Shown: one piece after another, positions 14,568-24,529 of the stretch
Position numbering within the stretch: position 1 is the stretch's first letter
How the letters are laid out: each line of letters opens with the position of its first letter
NCBI GenBank assembly: GCA_038874595.1
Contig: JAVZCB010000001.1
Coordinates: 96,001-160,000, forward strand
Direction of reading: 5' to 3'
Length of the DNA stretch: 64,000 bases
Source: Candidatus Micrarchaeia archaeon
Lineage (GTDB): Archaea > Micrarchaeota > Micrarchaeia > CAILAH01
Program-made: the position numbers and the translations under genes
Notes under the pieces: model-generated
What the model was told of the DNA's origin: nothing
The model's database searches: none
Seen by the model: the letters and a program-made list of their open reading frames with translations, nothing else

Positions 14568-15134
14568 ATGGGAAAAAGGAGTGGAAAGAAGGGTAATGAA
14601 TACTCTGATGCCGTATTCGTGGGTGTCGGAGGCTGCGGGATCAATACGGTCTCAAGGCTGTCAGAGCTGGGAATAACCGGCTCAAAGTTCGTACTTGTGA
14701 ATAAGAAGGGCGATAACCATCCCTCATCAGTGAAGGGCGCGTCCGAATTGATCGTTGACATGCCGTTATCAACGCGCATGCCGCTCCCAGACAAGGAACT
14801 TGGCGCTTTCAAGAGCCAGCTCTCCGAGGAGCTCAAAGGCGCCGGGAAGGCATACATATTCGCAGGGCTTGGCGGCTCAACAGGTACCTCCCTTGCGCCG
14901 ATTGCCGCGCAAACAGCCAGGGAAATGGGCGTGGAGCCGGTCATAATAGTCACTCTTCCGTTTGAGGTTGAGAGGAATAGGTGTGAGATTGCCAGGAATA
15001 CGCTCCCCGCGCTCAGGGATATCCCCGGCCAGCTAATAGTCCGCGACAACAACGATTTGGTGAAGGAGTGTCCTAACCTATCGATGAAAGAGGCATTCAA
15101 GAAATTCGATGAGAAGCTCATAGGACAGCTCTGA
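14568..15134 (+). CDS. Short FtsZ/tubulin-family protein, N-terminal GTPase domain only
   Basis: VGVGGCGIN, AGLGGSTGTSLAP, VTLPFEVE, DNNDL, EAFKKFD; stops before the T7 loop and C-terminal domain. Confidence 0.8.
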   Translation: MGKRSGKKGNEYSDAVFVGVGGCGINTVSRLSELGITGSKFVLVNKKGDNHPSSVKGASELIVDMPLSTRMPLPDKELGAFKSQLSEELKGAGKAYIFAGLGGSTGTSLAPIAAQTAREMGVEPVIIVTLPFEVERNRCEIARNTLPALRDIPGQLIVRDNNDLVKECPNLSMKEAFKKFDEKLIGQL

Positions 15135-15281
15135 TTAATTTCCTTTTATTTTAGGGTTTCTATGATATTTGTTTATGCAGTTATGTGTGGCACAAAAGAC
15201 AGACAATTAAGTAATCTTAAAATCCAAGGTAAGGCGTTTTGTAATATTTTATATATTTATATCTTCACTAATGATAGGATC

Positions 15282-15893
15282 ATGGATAAAAAAACTGTCT
15301 TTGAAATTGTTAAAAAATTACAATTTGACACTAAAAAAATTATTTACAAAAAAGGTAATACCTCTGTATATATTATAAGACCATCTAAATTATCTAAGCG
15401 ATTTAATGAGTATGATGTGCATAAGAATTTCCAGATATTCCTTAGGATTGGTGAACGTGAATTTAGGCCAAATCATCTTAGGGTGATGATTGATCTTAAC
15501 CTAAGGATTCGCAGCCGCCCTGAACTGAAGAAAAAGCTACTCCTAGCGTTTGACAATATATTCTATGGAGCAGATCCAGAAAAGGAACTGAAAGCTCTGT
15601 CCCGACAGAAGTTTGAGCATTTTCTAAATGATTTGATAGTTATTGGTACACTTGCCCAATTATTTGTGATTGAGCAGGAATATTGTTATCACAGAAAAAG
15701 TAATTTTGATCCACCAACTCTCTTTTTTCAGGGCTGGGTTAGGGAATTTCTAGATAATCCTAAGGAAATAGATAATTTGTGCATGAGCGTTTGTAAAGGC
15801 CTACCTCCATTACAAAAATATGTATCTCGTGAAAATAAGAAAAGCAAAAACTATTCAAAGAAACTTAAGCCCCTTTGGTATCTTAAATCTTAA
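15282..15893 (+). CDS. Hypothetical protein, candidate restriction partner of the convergent MTase
   Basis: AT-rich 203-aa basic ORF whose stop overlaps the MTase stop; no catalytic motif recognised. Confidence 0.6.
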   Translation: MDKKTVFEIVKKLQFDTKKIIYKKGNTSVYIIRPSKLSKRFNEYDVHKNFQIFLRIGEREFRPNHLRVMIDLNLRIRSRPELKKKLLLAFDNIFYGADPEKELKALSRQKFEHFLNDLIVIGTLAQLFVIEQEYCYHRKSNFDPPTLFFQGWVREFLDNPKEIDNLCMSVCKGLPPLQKYVSRENKKSKNYSKKLKPLWYLKS

Positions 15894-16663
15894 TTCTCGG
15901 ACCATGCTTCAACAAGTTGCTTCTGAACTGCACCTAGGCGTTTTTTGGCAATTTCAATGTATTTTTCTTCTTTGTCTATACCTATTGAATTCCTATTAAG
16001 CATCTTTGCCGCTACCGATGTTGTTCCTGAGCCAACAAATGGATCTAGGACAGTATCACCTTCATTTGAAGTTGCAAGTATGATCCTCTTCAATAACTCT
16101 AGGGGTTTTTGGGTTGGATGAATACCATATTTTTTTTCACTCTTTGGTGTTAAAGGTATTTCCCACACATTACGCATTTGCTTGCCTTTATTTATAGATT
16201 TCATCAGTTCATAATTAAATACCCATTTCTTGTTGCTATGATTCTTTGTTGCCCAGATAAGATGTTCTGTGGATTCAGTAAACATGCGACACGTTATGTT
16301 TGGCTGGGCATTTGGCTTGAACCATACGATTGAATTGTTAATCTTTGCCTCATATATATGCTGAAGGATAAAACCAATCTGATAAATGTTATGGAACGAG
16401 CCACATACCCAAAAGCTCCCACCATGCTTCAAAACTCTCATACATTCCTTTATCCACTTCTGATTGAACTTAAAGAATTCGTCTTTCTCAAATATGTCCC
16501 ATTCTTCTGTAAGCGTTATGTGTTTGCTATATGCCCATCCCAGACCCTTCTTTTTCGCTAATCCATAAGGCGGGTCAGCAAATATCAGGTCAACTGATTC
16601 ATCAGGCATTTTCTTTAGCTCCTCAATTGCATCACCAATAATCAGCTGGTGAGTGGTCTTCAT
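15890..16663 (-). CDS. Beta-class N6A/N4C DNA methyltransferase, DpnA/M.MboIB-like
   Basis: DPPY before HPTQKP and DPFVGSGTT; PNITCRMFTESTE...FNYELMKSINKGKQM resembles the DpnA group. Confidence 0.92.
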   Translation of the reverse strand: MKTTHQLIIGDAIEELKKMPDESVDLIFADPPYGLAKKKGLGWAYSKHITLTEEWDIFEKDEFFKFNQKWIKECMRVLKHGGSFWVCGSFHNIYQIGFILQHIYEAKINNSIVWFKPNAQPNITCRMFTESTEHLIWATKNHSNKKWVFNYELMKSINKGKQMRNVWEIPLTPKSEKKYGIHPTQKPLELLKRIILATSNEGDTVLDPFVGSGTTSVAAKMLNRNSIGIDKEEKYIEIAKKRLGAVQKQLVEAWSEN

Positions 16664-16726: not shown

Positions 16727-19324
16727 CTAATAGCTATTCTCAAACTCCTTATAATGCTGGAAGAACCACTGCTTTACTATTTCTGTTGTGATGCAGTACA
16801 GGAACACGATCCCGAACACGATTGCAATATCAAGCGCGGATGGAACTGCAAAATTGAAATATTGGCCCACCGCGGGAAGTGAGACCACCGCAACCGCAGC
16901 GGCTGTGATAAACAGCGAAGATGTGATTAGCAGCCTGCTTGGTATGCTTGCAAAGAACGGCCCGCGCGTTCTCACTATGAATGTTATGAATATCTCGGAT
17001 AGCAGCGATTCAAGGAACCAGAGCGTTCGCAGCAGTGCCGCCCCTACGCCTAACACGTAATAGAATACTAATATGGTGAGCAGGTCAAACAGTGAGCTTA
17101 ACACACCGAAGAATACCATGAAATGCGAGATCATCTTGACATTCCATTTCTTAGGTGTCTTGATAGATTTCTCATCCACGTTATCTGTTGATATTGCGAG
17201 CATTGGGAAATCGCTGAGGAAGTTGTTCAATAATATCTGTACCGGAAGAAGCGGTATAAATGGAAGAAACAGCGGTGATATAATTACAGTGCCCATATTA
17301 CCGTAATTTGCGCTTATTGTGTTGAGTATATATTTTGTAATATTAGCGAACGTTTTCCTGCCCTCACGCACACCATCTGCGATTACCCTGAGGCTCTTAT
17401 GTGTCAGGACAACATCCGCTGCCTCTTTTGCAACGTCCTGTGCGGTATTTACTGAAATCCCCACATCAGCAAGCCGGAGAGCTGGTGCATCATTAATACC
17501 ATCACCCATAAACCCGACGATGTGGCCGTTTGCACGGACAGCTTCAAGGATTCTTACTTTTTGTGCAGGTGTAACACGCGCAAACACATTGTATTTCTCA
17601 ACAACCTCGTGTAATTTTTTATCATCTATATTATCAATCTCCTTGCCGGTGATTACGCGTTTTCCCTTAATCTCGAGCTTTACATCCTTACATAATCTCT
17701 TTGTAACATCCGGGTCATCACCGGTTAAAAGCATCAGTGATATGTCCAATTCCTTAAACTGCTTGATTGATTCAATAGCAGTTCTCTTAGGCTCGCTCTT
17801 AAAGAGCATAAACCCTTCCAACGTTAGCTCGCGCTCATCTGCAACAGAGTAATCATTCTTTTGTGGGACGGCTCGTGAAGCCACTGCGAGTACAGAGTAT
17901 CCTTCCTTTGCAAACCCCCGCACAATCTCATTTATCTTTTTCCTAACACTATCAATCTCAGTTTTCTTGCCGTTGATGTTGGCATAAGCACATACAGAGA
18001 GCACAGATTCTGCCTCACCTTTTGTTATAAGCACAATCTCCTGTCGTGATTTTCGCTTGCTTGTTTTCTGTGATATTTTAAACACTTCGCTCATCCGTTT
18101 CCTTTCATAATCGAACGCAATATCATCAATGTTTGCATACCCATCCGGCTTTTGGATATGATGAAGGTTCGCATATCTGATTATTGCAGTATCATATACA
18201 TTTCCAGAAATGTGTTTGCCGTGCGTATGCGCATGACTGCACAGCAACCCATATTTCAGGACACCCCAATCATCATTACCTAACGGTGCAACAGTTTTCT
18301 CAAGCATAAGTTCCGGCTCGGTAAGCGTACCGGTCTTATCCATTAGCAGCACGTCCATGAGCCCAACATCTTCGATTGTGGCGAGCTTTTTAACCACGAC
18401 TTTCTTCTCAGCCATCTTAAGTGCACCTGCAGACAACGTGATGGTAGTGATTGCAGGAAGCATCTCAGGTGCAATGCCAACAGCCACTGCAAGTGCAAAC
18501 AATAAAGATTCAAGGATACCCCTGCCAAGATATGAGTTTACAGCAAACACAAATATTGTCATTATTACAATGACCTGGAGTGTGAACGTACTGAACTTCC
18601 TGATATTAACCTGGAAATCAGATTCAGGTATCTTTGCTGAGTATAGTGTAGCGGTCCTGCCAAAATGCGTAGATTGACCCGTGGCAACCACTATACCTTT
18701 TGCAGTACCGTAAGTTACAGTGGTCCCCATAAGTGCATAATTCTTAAGCTCATATGCTGCCGGCCGTGCAAGCTTAATAGGCGCCGTACTTTTCTCAACC
18801 TCGCGCGACTCACCAGTTATTGCAGATTCATTCGTACGGAAATCTTCACATCTGACCAAACGCATATCCGCAGGCACAACGTTCCCGATCTCAAGCAGGA
18901 CCACATCACCGGGTACAAGGTCCTCCGCATTGATTTCTTCCTGCCGTCCATCACGTATTACAACAGCCTTATTTGAAAGATACCTCTTGAGCTGGCGTAG
19001 CGAGTTTTCTGAACGGTACTCTTGATAGAACCCGAGCAGTGCACTTAACAGCAGTATCGCTATAATCGTGAGCCCCTCTGTTGTATCCCCAATGTATAAA
19101 GCTATGACTGAGGCAAAAATTAGTATGAATATGAAAGCGTTATTAAACTGCGAAAGCAGTATCTCAAGCCATGAACGCCTGTCCCTCTCTGGGATTGAGT
19201 TCCTTCCGTAAACCATTCTCCTGCGTGCAACTTCATGTGCGCTTAGCCCTTTCTCAGGATCAACCTTAAGTGCAGCTGCAACTTGATAGCTTTCCAATCG
19301 CCAATATTCACTATTGTTATTCAC
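16727..19324 (-). CDS. mgtA: Magnesium-translocating P-type ATPase (P3B-like)
   Basis: [55 protein letters not shown]; probable GTG start at 19324. Confidence 0.88.
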   Translation of the reverse strand: MNNNSEYWRLESYQVAAALKVDPEKGLSAHEVARRRMVYGRNSIPERDRRSWLEILLSQFNNAFIFILIFASVIALYIGDTTEGLTIIAILLLSALLGFYQEYRSENSLRQLKRYLSNKAVVIRDGRQEEINAEDLVPGDVVLLEIGNVVPADMRLVRCEDFRTNESAITGESREVEKSTAPIKLARPAAYELKNYALMGTTVTYGTAKGIVVATGQSTHFGRTATLYSAKIPESDFQVNIRKFSTFTLQVIVIMTIFVFAVNSYLGRGILESLLFALAVAVGIAPEMLPAITTITLSAGALKMAEKKVVVKKLATIEDVGLMDVLLMDKTGTLTEPELMLEKTVAPLGNDDWGVLKYGLLCSHAHTHGKHISGNVYDTAIIRYANLHHIQKPDGYANIDDIAFDYERKRMSEVFKISQKTSKRKSRQEIVLITKGEAESVLSVCAYANINGKKTEIDSVRKKINEIVRGFAKEGYSVLAVASRAVPQKNDYSVADERELTLEGFMLFKSEPKRTAIESIKQFKELDISLMLLTGDDPDVTKRLCKDVKLEIKGKRVITGKEIDNIDDKKLHEVVEKYNVFARVTPAQKVRILEAVRANGHIVGFMGDGINDAPALRLADVGISVNTAQDVAKEAADVVLTHKSLRVIADGVREGRKTFANITKYILNTISANYGNMGTVIISPLFLPFIPLLPVQILLNNFLSDFPMLAISTDNVDEKSIKTPKKWNVKMISHFMVFFGVLSSLFDLLTILVFYYVLGVGAALLRTLWFLESLLSEIFITFIVRTRGPFFASIPSRLLITSSLFITAAAVAVVSLPAVGQYFNFAVPSALDIAIVFGIVFLYCITTEIVKQWFFQHYKEFENSY

Positions 19325-19497
19325 AGGACCACATAAATACTTCTGCCAAATACTTAAAAAGGCATTATGTTGTACATGCACGCGCAGGATGAGGGTGCCT
19401 GGTAGCACGGTGGTAGCAGAATTTTAAATCCGGCAAGTGCGCAACTGGAAACCTTCATACAGAGCGCTTTTATAACTCAGGTTGTAGAATATCTACC

Positions 19498-20481
19498 ATG
19501 GATCAACTTGTTCCCATAAAGATATCCTCGCTCAGGCACGGCCAGCAGGTTTCAGGCATATTTGCAGTAAAGATACGCAAAGCGCTCGGTACGTATACGA
19601 AAGGCCACCGGCTTGACCTGATACTTACGGATTCAAGTGGAGGAAGTATCCAATTTACGCTATGGGGCGGCTCTGGCGAAGATGCGCGTGCGCAGCTGCA
19701 GGCGCTGCTTGACTCGATACCTGAGGATGCAGTACTGCACATAACCGGCAAGGTTGACGATTATAACGGTGAATTGTACATAGCTGCAAATTCTATTGAT
19801 TCAGTGCGCGTGCTTAATGAAGGTGAGTTTCCGGCCGATGCGTTCATCCCGCCAGCACGGCGTGACATAAATGAGATGCGCACCGAGCTTGAAACCGCAA
19901 TAAAATCAATCCGAAACACGCACATCACATCAGTGCTCTTGCACATATTCACTAATGAATTTAAGGAGAAATTCTTGGTGCATCCCGCTGCGGTACAACA
20001 TCATCATAACCGTACAGGCGGGCTTGCAGAGCATACCCTTGAGGTTGTGCATATATGTGAGGAGCTGTGTAGGATTTATCCATCTCTTGACCGTGATCTT
20101 CTCATTGCGGGTGCATTGCTCCATGATATAGGCAAGACTAAGGAGATCACTGTAAGCCGCCGGATAAAGGCAGATTCGCAGAGCCAGCTGGTTGGGCATC
20201 TCATGTATACGGCACTTATGCTTTCGCAGGCGTTTGATGCATGTAATACACCAGAGCCGTTACGCTCCAAGCTGCTGCACCTCTCATTAAGCCACCACGG
20301 GAAAAATGATTACGGCTCACCTAAAGAGCCGATGTTTCCTGAAGCGGCAGCATTGCATTACGCTGATGAGACCAGCGCAATCGTGGCGGAAATGCTTGAT
20401 TTTGTCAGTGAGTACCGGGATATCACACTTGATGACACAATGTACTCCCGCACGCTGAGGAGAAACATCTATCTCAGGTAG
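19498..20481 (+). CDS. YhaM/Cbf1-like 3'-5' exonuclease (OB plus HD domains)
   Basis: HPAAVQHHH...GGLAEHT, LLHDIGK, SHHG, LHYAD. Confidence 0.9.
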   Translation: MDQLVPIKISSLRHGQQVSGIFAVKIRKALGTYTKGHRLDLILTDSSGGSIQFTLWGGSGEDARAQLQALLDSIPEDAVLHITGKVDDYNGELYIAANSIDSVRVLNEGEFPADAFIPPARRDINEMRTELETAIKSIRNTHITSVLLHIFTNEFKEKFLVHPAAVQHHHNRTGGLAEHTLEVVHICEELCRIYPSLDRDLLIAGALLHDIGKTKEITVSRRIKADSQSQLVGHLMYTALMLSQAFDACNTPEPLRSKLLHLSLSHHGKNDYGSPKEPMFPEAAALHYADETSAIVAEMLDFVSEYRDITLDDTMYSRTLRRNIYLR

Positions 20482-20535
20482 CCTCAGAGAAGCGTACATA
20501 TTATGCTTTTATATGTTGGCTGCCTACTATAAAAT

Positions 20536-20591
20536 GGCGATGAAGCTCGCCGGCACAAAAGCGAACCGCCAAAGTTGGCTGATAGCTTCTG
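20536..20591 (+). promoter_or_regulatory. Fluoride (crcB) riboswitch
   Basis: GGCGAUGAAGCUCGCC...AACCGCC-aaaguu-GGCUGAUAGCUUCU: stem GGCGA/UCGCC, pseudoknot GAAGCU/AGCUUC, conserved GAUG and CUGAU; TATA-like ttttatat at 20507-20514. Confidence 0.87.
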
Positions 20592-20612
20592 GTTTTACAC
20601 GAAGGTGGTTTT

Positions 20613-20765
20613 ATGGTGTACTTTTGCCCATATTGTAACATGAGTAACGGGCTAACCTCGGTTCTCACTGAGGATGCACAGTCAGGTGAGCTGGTATGCA
20701 AGTACGATTCACAGCACAGGTTCACAGTCGGGCGTGACGGGTTCCTAAAAGTGGTTAACAAGTAG
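20613..20765 (+). CDS. 50-aa putative Zn-binding microprotein (CPYC...C-x5-H), not in ORF track
   Basis: MVYFCPYCNMSNGLTSVLTEDAQSGELVCKYDSQHRFTVGRDGFLKVVNK*, RBS AAGGTGG. Confidence 0.8.
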   Translation: MVYFCPYCNMSNGLTSVLTEDAQSGELVCKYDSQHRFTVGRDGFLKVVNK

Positions 20766-20818
20766 TTTGTGTATCCTGTCCAGCACAGTAAAATCAATAT
20801 ACAGTCTGGTGGTGCAGT

Positions 20819-22570
20819 TTGGTGATGGACGCTGGAAGATTTGAATCACTTGGTAGTGAGATTCTCAGCGTTATCGATACGCTTAAGCAGTATAGCGGGG
20901 CACCTGAGAAACGGCTTGGCCAGATTGCCGAAAACATCAGGTGTGGCTCGTTTACACTTGCAGTTGCTGGGCAATTCAAGCGTGGCAAGACGACACTCAT
21001 AAACGCGCTTTTAGGTATGGGCTTGTTGCCTACGGGAGTGGTGCCGCTTACATCGATAGTGACCTATGTCCGGTATTCCCCGGAAATTAAGGCGCGTGTG
21101 AAGTTGGCTGGTGGTGAGGAGAAAGCAATTGCTATCGATGAGATAAGCCAATATGTAACAGAGAAGCATAATCCCAAGAATATCAAAGGCGTTCAGGAAG
21201 TTGATGTTTGGGTGCCCTCAGCATTCCTTAGGAATGGTGTGGTGATTGTAGACACACCGGGTATTGGGTCAACGCACGCGCATAACACAGAGGTGACGCG
21301 CCGGTTTCTTCCTGAAGCAGATGCGGTTATATTTGTGCTTTCAGGAGACCCGCCAATAACCGAATCCGAGTGCAGGTTTCTTGAGGAGAGTGCAAAGTAT
21401 GCATCAAAATTCTTTTTTGTGCTGAACAAAATTGATTATTACGAGGAGCACGAGGTTGCAGAACTTGCAGAGTTTAATCGTGGCGTGCTTGCATCCAGGC
21501 TTGGTGTGAGGCAGGATGATGTGCGCTTGTACCCACTGTCAGCAAAACGCTCACTTGGCAGGAAGCTAGCTGGTTTAACTCATGAAAATGACGGACTTAC
21601 AGAGTTTGAGAATGCACTTGCGGAATATATTTCTTCAAACAAGGGCGTGCTCATACTGCAGTCTGCCATGTCAAAGTTGAGATATTTTACGGATGAGCTT
21701 ATAAACCAGCGCCAGATAGAAAGAAGCAGTCTTTCAGCATCAGCGGCACAGTTAGAGGAGCGTGTTAAAAAATTTGATGCTGAGCTGAAACGTATCCTGT
21801 CCAAGAAGGAATACATGGGTGATTTTGTCGCAGTTGAGCAAAAGAAGATAATGTCTATTATTGATGATGATATTAATGAACTGAAACGCGCTGTAACAGC
21901 ATCACTTGAGCAGCAGATAGTTGAGTTTGCTCAATCCCTCAAGACCACTGACAATTATAAGTATGCAGTTGAAGTTGAGGAATATTCCAACGACCATATC
22001 TTGGATGTGCTGGAGCCGTGGCGCACAAAAGAGGAGGAGAAGGTTGCCGGGATTTATGCTGAGAAGATGAATAAATATTCTGGAGAGATAAACGCAATAA
22101 TTGAGGAAGTTGAGAAGACTGCATCTGGCCTGTTTGATGTTAAGATAGAAAGCAGGAAAACAGAGGAGAAGTTTACGCTCGAAAGTGCGTTTTATTTCAA
22201 GCTTGGGAGGATTGAGGAGGGTACCGGGCTGTCAATGCTTGAGATGGTGCTTCCGCACCCATTATTCAGGAAAAAGCTTCTTGCCAACCTGCCTGATTAT
22301 ATACGTGAAGACCTTGACAGAAACTGTGGCAGGGTACGGTATGACTTTTATGAGCGCATACAAAAGAGCTCGCTTGTGTTTATTGAGATGCTTGATGATA
22401 AAGTGGATGCGGCAATTAATGGTATACGCAGTGCTAGTGAGAATGCACTCAAGCTGCGCGCGCAGGGAAACGAGAAGGTACGCGAGCGCATAGCCCAGCT
22501 TGATACAGAGTTAAGCCACCTGCGCAGGTTGCAGGACCGTCTTGCATCAATCAATCCGCACGTAGTGTGA
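20819..22570 (+). CDS. Dynamin-like GTPase (bacterial DLP type)
   Basis: G1 GQFKRGKT, G2 LPTGVVPLT, G3 DTPG, G4 NKID, long helical stalk. Confidence 0.92.
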   Translation: MVMDAGRFESLGSEILSVIDTLKQYSGAPEKRLGQIAENIRCGSFTLAVAGQFKRGKTTLINALLGMGLLPTGVVPLTSIVTYVRYSPEIKARVKLAGGEEKAIAIDEISQYVTEKHNPKNIKGVQEVDVWVPSAFLRNGVVIVDTPGIGSTHAHNTEVTRRFLPEADAVIFVLSGDPPITESECRFLEESAKYASKFFFVLNKIDYYEEHEVAELAEFNRGVLASRLGVRQDDVRLYPLSAKRSLGRKLAGLTHENDGLTEFENALAEYISSNKGVLILQSAMSKLRYFTDELINQRQIERSSLSASAAQLEERVKKFDAELKRILSKKEYMGDFVAVEQKKIMSIIDDDINELKRAVTASLEQQIVEFAQSLKTTDNYKYAVEVEEYSNDHILDVLEPWRTKEEEKVAGIYAEKMNKYSGEINAIIEEVEKTASGLFDVKIESRKTEEKFTLESAFYFKLGRIEEGTGLSMLEMVLPHPLFRKKLLANLPDYIREDLDRNCGRVRYDFYERIQKSSLVFIEMLDDKVDAAINGIRSASENALKLRAQGNEKVRERIAQLDTELSHLRRLQDRLASINPHVV

Positions 22571-22575
22571 TATGA

Positions 22576-22785
22576 ATGGGTGATGCTTTATTGCCATTAT
22601 TTCCAATCGCAATAATTTTTCTTGTCCTGCTTGGTGTAATGGTATTTTTGCGCACATATATCCATTTTCCAAGGATGGCGTGGCCAGAAAGAGTTATGCT
22701 CGCGTTCAGGAACGCTTTCTATATGGTACTCTTGATAATCATCCTGTGTATCATTTTTCTTATTTTGGTCCCTTACCTGGTTTAG
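22576..22785 (+). CDS. Small two-TM membrane protein
   Basis: Two hydrophobic helices; starts 5 nt after the dynamin stop. Confidence 0.65.
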   Translation: MGDALLPLFPIAIIFLVLLGVMVFLRTYIHFPRMAWPERVMLAFRNAFYMVLLIIILCIIFLILVPYLV

Positions 22786-23059
22786 GGCATTTCTTATTAT
22801 AACCTAGCGCTTCAAGTATAGCATATACGCGCTTGTTCCTTATTTCATAAAATACTCGCCGCCCCATTCTTTTAGATGATATAACACCAAGCCTCTCAAG
22901 CTTTTTGAGCTGTAATGAAACAGTAGGTTGGGCCTTTTTAACCTGTGGGAATATCTTACATACGCATAGTTTTCCGTTGAGTAGCAGCTCTACTATTCTG
23001 AACCGCGTATCATCGGCAAGTGCCTTAACGAGCTTGATAGCATCTTCTCTTGTGCGCAT
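22760..23059 (-). CDS. arsR: ArsR/SmtB family regulator
   Basis: KALADDTRFRIVELL...LCVC...QPTVSLQLKKL. Confidence 0.9.
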   Translation of the reverse strand: MRTREDAIKLVKALADDTRFRIVELLLNGKLCVCKIFPQVKKAQPTVSLQLKKLERLGVISSKRMGRRVFYEIRNKRVYAILEALGYNKKCPKPGKGPK

Positions 23060-23119
23060 ATGACATATTTATGTTTGTAAATATATAAATGTTTGTGTGC
23101 AAATATATACTGTGATATT

Positions 23120-23362
23120 ATGAAAATTCAAGTGCTTGGTGGCGGATGCCCAAAGTGTAAGATGGTTGAGGAAAATGTGCACAAGGCACTCAGCCAGCTA
23201 GGTATCGAGGCTGACATAGTTAAGGTTAAGGATATAAACGAGATTGTTGGGTTTGGGGTGATGTCCACACCAGCTCTTGCGATCAACGGGAAGGTTAAGG
23301 TGGCAGGCAGGATACCTGATGTTAATGAGATTATGAAATGGATTAAAGAGGCAAACGAATAG
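23120..23362 (+). CDS. MTH895/ArsE-type small thioredoxin-like protein
   Basis: IQVLGGGCPKC...GVMSTPALAING. Confidence 0.92.
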   Translation: MKIQVLGGGCPKCKMVEENVHKALSQLGIEADIVKVKDINEIVGFGVMSTPALAINGKVKVAGRIPDVNEIMKWIKEANE

Positions 23363-23410
23363 CCTACCGGTTTCTGGTGGCCAACCTGGTTTGAGTATAA
23401 AGTGGTATTT

Positions 23411-24529
23411 ATGGAGAAAGAAGATTATGTACAGCTTGCAGTAATCGTTGGCGTGTTCCTTCTGTTTTACCTGCTTCCGCCAGATGCGGATTGGCTCAAC
23501 AAATCAGTTCAGAGCGGTTTGGTGTTGCTTAGTGAATACGCAAAACAGCACGTCCTTACCTGCCTTGTCCCAGCACTTTTTATTGCTGGTGCGATTTCCG
23601 TGTTCATAAAAAAAGATAAAATCCTGAAATATCTTGGTGCGGAAGCAAACCTGGCTTTCTCATATCTGATTGCATCTGTTACAGGCGCAATACTTGCAGT
23701 ATGCTCGTGCACAATATTACCATTGTTTGCCGGGATACGGAAGAGAGGCGCCGGGCTGGGCCCCGCAGTTACGTTCTTGTTTGCTGGTCCGGCAATCAAT
23801 ATTGCAGCCATCTTTCTCACATTTTCAGTGCTCGGGGTATGGATTGGCCTTGGGCGTGCGGTCGCATCAATAGTGCTTTCCATAATCATAGGGCTAACGA
23901 TGGCGGTTCTGTTTAAAGAGGAAACAGAGAAGGGGAAACTCTTTATTGAGGAGAACGAGGAGGCAAGGGTTTCTGATAAAGTGCTTTTGCTATTCTTTGG
24001 TTTTTTGGTAGGTATACTGGTTGTGAACGGATTACAAATGGAGCAACTCACAAAATATCTGATTATTGGCCTGTTCACGCTTGCAGTTGTAGTGCTGGTC
24101 TTACTTAAATTCAGGGATAATACTCGTGCCAAATGGCTTAGCGAAACATGGTCATTCTCAAAATCAATACTCCCGATGCTTTTTATAGGGGTATTTATTG
24201 CAGGGTTTATAATGCCTTTAATCCCAGAACAGCTGGTAGTGCAGCTTGTTGGCAAGAACTCCATTGAAGGCAACCTGGTCGCATCTGTGTTTGGTGCAGT
24301 GATGTATTTCTCAACACTTACAGAAATACCTATATTACAGGTGCTTATTGCAAAAGGTATGAATACCGGGCCGGCACTTGCACTACTGCTTGCAGGCCCT
24401 TCTTTGAGCTTGCCAAATATGTTAGTTATAAGGGGAATTCTTGGGACAAGAAAGGCCCTCGCATATATCGTGCTTGTTGTGGTATACTCTACAATTGCAG
24501 GGTATATGTTTGGTGCACTGATGGCTTAA
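23411..24529 (+). CDS. ArsP/DUF318 family permease
   Basis: HVLTCLVPA, LAVCSCTILPLF, MYFSTLTE, GPSLSLP. Confidence 0.88.
   Translation: MEKEDYVQLAVIVGVFLLFYLLPPDADWLNKSVQSGLVLLSEYAKQHVLTCLVPALFIAGAISVFIKKDKILKYLGAEANLAFSYLIASVTGAILAVCSCTILPLFAGIRKRGAGLGPAVTFLFAGPAINIAAIFLTFSVLGVWIGLGRAVASIVLSIIIGLTMAVLFKEETEKGKLFIEENEEARVSDKVLLLFFGFLVGILVVNGLQMEQLTKYLIIGLFTLAVVVLVLLKFRDNTRAKWLSETWSFSKSILPMLFIGVFIAGFIMPLIPEQLVVQLVGKNSIEGNLVASVFGAVMYFSTLTEIPILQVLIAKGMNTGPALALLLAGPSLSLPNMLVIRGILGTRKALAYIVLVVVYSTIAGYMFGALMA

Follow-up and report, generated by a model that had tools for sequence, protein, structure and literature searches.

The fluoride riboswitch and its surroundings

The window analyzed here, a 64,000 nucleotide stretch of contig JAVZCB010000001.1 of a Candidatus Micrarchaeia archaeon to which coordinates refer unless another locus is named, contains a fluoride riboswitch aptamer followed on the forward strand by three genes, coding for a 50 amino acid (aa) zinc-ribbon-like microprotein (20613..20765), a dynamin-like GTPase (20825..22570) and a 69 aa two-helix membrane (2-TM) protein (22576..22785). 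The aptamer was identified by Rfam cmscan as a match to RF01734 at positions 20527-20598 (+) (core: 20536-20590; Bitscore: 41.2; gathering cut-off: 34; E-value: 5.5e-8) which covers the full model (positions 1-64), and it is the single copy over the cut-off in the 918 kb genome (93.5% complete). Read from the sequence, helix P1 is formed by 20536-39 with 20548-51, helix P2 by 20568-70 with 20577-79, and the pseudoknot by five pairs between GAAGC (20542-46) and GCTTC (20585-89). The window aptamer makes each of these 12 pairs and also contains the conserved GAUG and AU-R-C core. P1, P2 and the pseudoknot likewise form in eight archaeal relatives, and across the nine archaeal copies 99% of the cells are paired, mostly through invariance, with covariation not above that of shuffles (59/500). 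The aptamer sits in a 5′ leader, with a TATA-like box (TTTATA; 20508..20513, +), the putative promoter, 28 nt upstream and an ATG 22 nt downstream. A TATA-like box 26-33 nt upstream of the aptamer also occurs in most of the archaeal relatives. The original prediction of a complete crcB-motif aptamer behind a TATA-like box is thus borne out by the three intact helices and by the Rfam covariance model that it had proposed as a check.

A second RF01734 match in the genome (G000:C3:149254-149302, locus L002, and L005:1509-1567; Bitscore at C3: 21.3) lies downstream of a Na+/Ca2+ exchanger gene; its 3′ pseudoknot strand is absent, and it was treated as degenerate. An intact riboswitch is present at the matching site of the same-genus genome G001, with no obvious gene behind it. 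On the same strand upstream of the locus, a gene for a YhaM-like OB-fold/HD nuclease (19498-20481) ends 27 nt before the TATA-like box.

The dynamin-like GTPase

The translated product of the second gene contains a Dynamin_N domain (PF00350; Bitscore: 106; E-value: 2.5e-30), and its G1-G4 motifs (G49-K55, T76, D143-G146 and K202/D204) are invariant in an alignment of 97 rows. The ATG at 20825 is the more likely start codon, with an alternative at 20819; it gives a protein of 581 aa, which is also the length of the database protein (P0002), and places the gene 59 nt rather than 53 nt behind the microprotein. The predicted open reading frame is as such real, but its supposed length of 583 aa and distance of 53 nt probably need correction. 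In the predicted structure (pLDDT: 84) the G domain is followed by a helical neck and trunk, and the best Foldseek matches are IniA (6j72; E-value: 1e-20) and BDLP (2j69), with Cj-DLP1/2 and SynDLP also among the top matches, in agreement with the proposed membrane-remodelling type of dynamin. At the putative tip, a flexible loop (residues 447-466) precedes a hydrophobic stretch that extends up to a conserved L476-P477, and no transmembrane helix was found in the protein. The window GTPase has the G domain and helical neck/trunk, and possibly a membrane-facing tip, in common with Mycobacterium IniA (6j72/6j73) and Nostoc BDLP (2j68/2j69), but amino acid identity is only 16-20%, with a TM-score of about 0.4-0.46, and it is encoded by a single gene rather than as a pair of dynamin-like proteins (DLPs). 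To our knowledge, neither IniA nor BDLP is regulated by fluoride.

No other clear DLP copy was found in the genome, and the nearest relatives of the GTPase are found in the Bilamarchaeaceae and other Micrarchaeota. Orthology to DynA, LeoA or CrfC was rejected, as the NCBIfam scores fall below the curated cut-offs (68.8/1600, 29.5/325 and 26/1146 bits, respectively). DynA is reported to cluster on membranes under pore-forming stress (PMC12998192).

The microprotein and 2-TM protein families

The microprotein belongs to a Micrarchaeia-wide family with members in 61 of 401 genomes of this class. Among 57 aligned rows the only invariant columns are C5, C8, C29 and H35, putative metal ligands of a Cys3His site. 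No Pfam family scored over its cut-off for any of the 57 members, and assignment to the TFIIB/Elf1 zinc ribbons was rejected for the window protein (20.7 versus a cut-off of 29 bits). TFIIB (PF08271) and Elf1 (PF05129) have a CxxC knuckle and a second ligand pair in common with the microproteins and match 11/57 and 8/57 of them weakly, but all of these matches are below the cut-off, and the microprotein ligands are spaced C-x2-C-x17-20-C-x5-H, the first pair being followed by a short helix. A fold search gave no clear match (best Z: 4.1), a word-indexed search returned the protein itself only, and the ESM Atlas search produced weak leads only (DUF4059 and DUF7836). In many genomes of family f15 (loci L115, L119, L123, L126 and L128), two divergent copies of the microprotein gene lie ~1-2 kb apart and flank genes for Cys-rich lipoproteins, with no riboswitch.

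Among the 29 best non-self loci of microprotein homologs, the riboswitch is present over the cut-off at five and weakly at one more; the positives of the custom RNA model used in this search agree with Rfam wherever both were run. These riboswitch-bearing loci have no dynamin gene nearby, and they precede an antiporter gene or stand alone. On the family tree, built from few columns, the riboswitch label changes at least three times, suggesting that the microprotein was repeatedly recruited or repeatedly lost as a riboswitch target. Most of the homologs are riboswitch-free, an outcome which had been named as evidence against the original prediction and which counts against it in part, although pairs of riboswitch and microprotein also exist without dynamin.

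The 2-TM protein consists of two hydrophobic helices around a conserved T-Y-x-H-x-P-x-M loop, of which the polar T, Y and H residues, at the helix end, are invariant in the family; it belongs to no Pfam family. Its identity as a Fluc/CrcB protein was rejected, since it has 69 aa and two helices (Fluc: about 125 aa, four transmembrane helices) and PF02537 is matched by 0/14 members. The gene adjoins that of the GTPase even where it is flipped or moved; it also occurs with neither riboswitch nor dynamin in two genomes (G035 and G050) and is absent from the bacterial dynamin loci.

A fuller form of the module in other Micrarchaeota

Riboswitch, microprotein, dynamin and 2-TM genes are kept together in other Micrarchaeota, in line with the proposed synteny, and the three same-strand genes of the window are real and conserved. 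A search with the single sequence of the locus had given no match. The fuller module comprises the riboswitch followed by genes for the microprotein, a ~295 aa prenyltransferase-repeat protein (PF00432), the dynamin and the 2-TM protein. The prenyltransferase-repeat gene is accompanied by a riboswitch at 15/16 metagenome loci, several of them near-duplicates, and the microprotein is an optional component, being absent from L010, L011, L138 and L139. At locus L153 (626-1565) a riboswitch lies directly before a prenyltransferase-repeat gene with no dynamin, suggesting that genes of this family are riboswitch targets by themselves. In the window's genome no prenyltransferase-repeat gene was found with tblastn and a custom HMM. 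A weak match to its 3′ end at 20761..20853 (+), overlapping the gap and the start of the dynamin gene (best-of-gap p of about 0.015 against random genome pieces), may represent a decayed remnant, and the gene may have been deleted here with this piece left in the gap.

The distribution of the dynamin gene is patchy, with copies in 4/401 genomes of the class and in 0/8 genomes of the same family (61-93% complete). Where the latter have riboswitches, these precede a Na+/H+ antiporter gene in two genomes. Both the window dynamin and microprotein have a long end branch.

A cassette encoding an ArsR regulator, a small thioredoxin-like protein and an ArsP permease (22760-24529) abuts the operon, and cassettes of similar make-up lie beside the riboswitch module at L013, L135, L153 and L154, which suggests a toxic-ion resistance island. 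On the opposite strand, an 893 aa P-type cation ATPase (16727-19408, -) appears MgtA-like by its sequence pattern; a P-type ATPase with 38% identity adjoins the dynamin gene in L017, and a link between Mg2+ and fluoride is conceivable. Further upstream, an unassigned 243 aa ORF and a convergent DNA methyltransferase-like ORF with a DPPY motif (15162-16663) probably constitute a restriction-modification system, and a 188 aa FtsZ/tubulin-like ORF (14568-15134) contains a GGSTGT motif and apparently no C-terminal domain.

Association of riboswitch and dynamin across bacteria and archaea

The best-scoring 80 of more than 500 bacterial and archaeal dynamin loci, among which kin are not independent, were surveyed; they derive from Desulfobacterota, Nitrospirota, Planctomycetota, Bacteroidota, Actinomycetota, Aquificota, Methanosarcinales, Woesearchaeota and other groups. 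A same-strand fluoride riboswitch is located within 2.5 kb upstream of the dynamin gene in 64/80 of these loci, and within about 300 nt in 54/80; in 3/80 it is found elsewhere or is divergent, and 13/80 have none. These counts combine a custom RNA model with Rfam, with one counted locus (L089) called by the custom model only. Rfam confirmed the riboswitch in 20/20 loci chosen for size and prior signal and recovered it in 5/14 loci missed by the first custom model. For scale, RF01734 is present over the cut-off, in any copy, in 8/150 Micrarchaeia genomes. Within the Micrarchaeota clade of the window dynamin (10 rows; SH-aLRT: 100) the riboswitch accompanies 10/10 members.

Recurrent neighbors of the dynamin homologs encode Na+/H+ antiporters (23 loci), MFS transporters (18), USP proteins (13), enolase (9) and CrcB (7), as well as DUF190 and DUF6062 proteins. 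The antiporters, USP, enolase and CrcB are known members of the fluoride regulon (PMC11139923; PMC5533749), as exemplified by the ppaC-uspA-eno-gpmA-crcB operon of Enterobacter cloacae FRM (PMC5533749). The window has the aptamer class and its 5′ position in common with this regulon (RF01734; Weinberg 2010, PMC2864571; reviewed in PMC11139923), but its switch heads the genes for a dynamin-like GTPase and for two small proteins of unnamed families, with no exporter found in the genome.

In Methanosarcinales, Woesearchaeota and most bacterial homologs the dynamin gene lies directly behind the riboswitch, with no prenyltransferase-repeat gene, and the cultured carriers Methanocella conradii and Hippea alviniae have the riboswitch directly upstream of the dynamin homolog. 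Within 10 kb, a Methanocella locus (L172) has four riboswitch copies distributed around genes for MFS, dynamin, enolase and prenyltransferase-repeat proteins, and it would be a good experimental model. In bacteria and archaea alike the riboswitch goes with the dynamin subfamily, in most cases with no microprotein present, and its presence in 64/80 loci indicates that the GTPase, rather than the microprotein, is the conserved target. The original prediction had built the module around the microprotein as the direct target, a view from which these data depart, and the module is not specific to DPANN archaea.

Search for known fluoride exporters

A search of the whole genome, which is 93.5% complete, gave neither Fluc (PF02537) nor CLC (PF00654) and so extends an absence first noted for the window. 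The other module-carrying genomes G154 and G264 likewise yielded no Fluc, and in the CLC search, which covered 11 genomes, none of 10 riboswitch-carrying genomes had a CLC over the cut-off. Fluc is, however, present in only 5/401 Micrarchaeia, two of the copies being directly behind a riboswitch, and crcB occurs near the same GTPase in seven of the bacterial loci. Since most of the class lacks Fluc, its absence here is not enough to show that the module substitutes for an exporter, and the suggestion that these genes stand in place of one is weak.

Proposed regulation of the putative operon

A Shine-Dalgarno (SD)-like sequence of the microprotein gene (AGGTGG; 20603..20608, +) is located 13 nt after the aptamer. 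In the centroid structure of the free fold, aptamer positions 20563-20570 can pair with 20604-11 over this site. Across 28 archaeal copies SD masking is 0.59 against 0.43 in shuffled sequences, and is higher in 16/28, representing at most a modest excess. No intrinsic terminator was found behind the aptamer; a short U-tract is present there, at which transcription may terminate. The riboswitch of Thermococcus kodakarensis, the one tested archaeal case, is presumed to control translation and, like that of the window, has an SD-like site close behind the aptamer, but it controls a fluoride export pathway, unlike the window switch (Speed 2018, as cited in PMC8241225). Several other aptamers (L113, L117, L131-L133, L135 and L136) have a C-A mismatch in P1, and their 3′ strand, CTCACC, resembles the 16S anti-SD and can pair with a downstream GGTGAG; this pairing is a possible signature of translation control.

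No TATA-like box was found ahead of the dynamin or 2-TM genes, which counts against the caveat that the gap might hold a promoter for dynamin. The dynamin gene has its own SD-like site, 59 nt beyond the microprotein stop, so that control by the riboswitch must pass to it by polarity. The termination factor FttA/aCPSF1 is encoded in the genome and, with no internal TATA-like box, polarity could carry control downstream.

We consider it probable that the locus is a fluoride-inducible operon. Judging from the conserved TATA spacing, transcription would start just 5′ of the aptamer. In the absence of fluoride the 3′ half of the aptamer would pair with the ribosome-binding site of the microprotein gene, and binding of F-/Mg2+ would lock the pseudoknot and free this site. 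Translation of the first gene would then allow transcription to continue into the dynamin and 2-TM genes, by escape either from FttA/aCPSF1 polarity or from a stop at the U-tract. On the basis of fold and co-occurrence, the GTPase may bind the membrane via a putative amphipathic tip and remodel or reseal it when HF/fluoride stress occurs; the 2-TM protein and microprotein would then be accessory components. The chance that this full chain holds, from fluoride induction to a GTPase that remodels or protects the membrane, appears evenly balanced. On this reading the three-gene operon is a reduced Micrarchaeota form of a cross-domain module, the core of which is a single IniA/BDLP-type GTPase behind a fluoride riboswitch.

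Alternative explanations

The absence of the prenyltransferase-repeat partner from the genome, with its possible remnant in the gap, could also mark a decaying relic, in which the riboswitch controls translation of the microprotein only and the dynamin and 2-TM proteins are constitutive or hardly made. Control of the translation type affects no gene but the first, a riboswitch and microprotein occur as a unit with no dynamin at L100, L102, L106, L113 and L117, and the lack of dynamin from all eight same-family genomes and the long end branches of the window proteins point the same way. Decay is nevertheless unlikely, given that the three ORFs are intact, the dynamin G motifs are conserved and no internal TATA-like box is available, and that the Methanosarcinales, Woesearchaeota and most bacterial homologs are likewise partner-less directly behind the switch. 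Dynamin-family G domains are known to be trapped by metal fluorides, and a general membrane GTPase trapped by GDP-MgFx/AlFx mimics might be over-supplied in compensation, as are enolase and pyrophosphatase. Over-supply of inhibited enzymes is documented regulon logic (PMC11139923; PMC5533749), and enolase genes adjoin dynamin homologs in nine loci. With dynamin in only 4/401 Micrarchaeia, it is not a housekeeping gene, and it is the only clear DLP of its genome. That a dispensable gene is kept, in most cases, behind an ON-switch for fluoride suggests a role specific to fluoride. Extra supply of an inhibited GTPase is therefore a rather improbable account and the weaker of the two mechanisms originally put forward, fitting poorly with a rare, dispensable gene.

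Removal of fluoride itself, whether through a 2-TM oligomer acting as a new conduit or through a GTPase that sheds fluoride-loaded vesicles, would agree with the missing Fluc and CLC genes here and in the genomes described above, with the invariant polar residues at the 2-TM helix end, and with vesicle release mediated by M. tuberculosis DLPs (PMC10240201). The 2-TM protein bears no likeness to Fluc, however, its gene occurs without riboswitch or dynamin and is missing from bacterial loci, CrcB can accompany the GTPase in bacteria, and the absence of Fluc is the norm for the class, making this explanation very doubtful. DynA is known to limit phage spread (PMC8844932), and the variable region around the locus contains genes for restriction-modification and metal resistance, as might be expected if a DynA-like anti-virus or general envelope-stress gene had come to lie behind the riboswitch by accident. 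The recurrence of the link across many phyla and many changes of gene order argues that it is not due to chance, and the 64/80 linkage largely refutes this scarcely credible alternative.

Implications for the fluoride response

Fluoride riboswitches flag genes needed under fluoride stress, and Fluc and CLC-F were assigned in that way. The gene list of Baker 2012 reportedly includes 'COG1689' and possibly a GTPase class, and the riboswitch-dynamin association may have been recorded earlier as an unexplained associate, though unstudied. No paper joining the fluoride riboswitch and dynamin was found in the searchable literature, and the 2024 review of the fluoride regulon lists no GTPase. No paper naming COG1689 was found in the searchable literature, nor does COG1689 occur in the first 200 supplementary items of Weinberg 2010. 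New here are the Micrarchaeota form with its families of zinc microproteins and 2-TM proteins, the disappearance of the prenyltransferase-repeat gene and the finding that Fluc is scarce throughout the class.

The riboswitch-dynamin module points towards a component of the fluoride response other than export. A bolder reading, that in both domains the dynamin subfamily is a machine dedicated to fluoride defence, which protects membranes, reseals them or expels fluoride in vesicles, and which with the 2-TM protein and microprotein provides exporter-independent tolerance in Micrarchaeota without recognizable Fluc or CLC, is tentative and on present evidence somewhat unlikely. If the fluoride-induced, membrane-directed role of the GTPase is correct, membrane remodelling would be added to a response that is chiefly known to involve export, the balance of pH and extra supply of enzymes, and a prokaryotic dynamin subfamily would gain a defined inducer and so become testable with NaF. 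Archaeal riboswitches are very few, and the locus and its relatives also add examples from DPANN to them.
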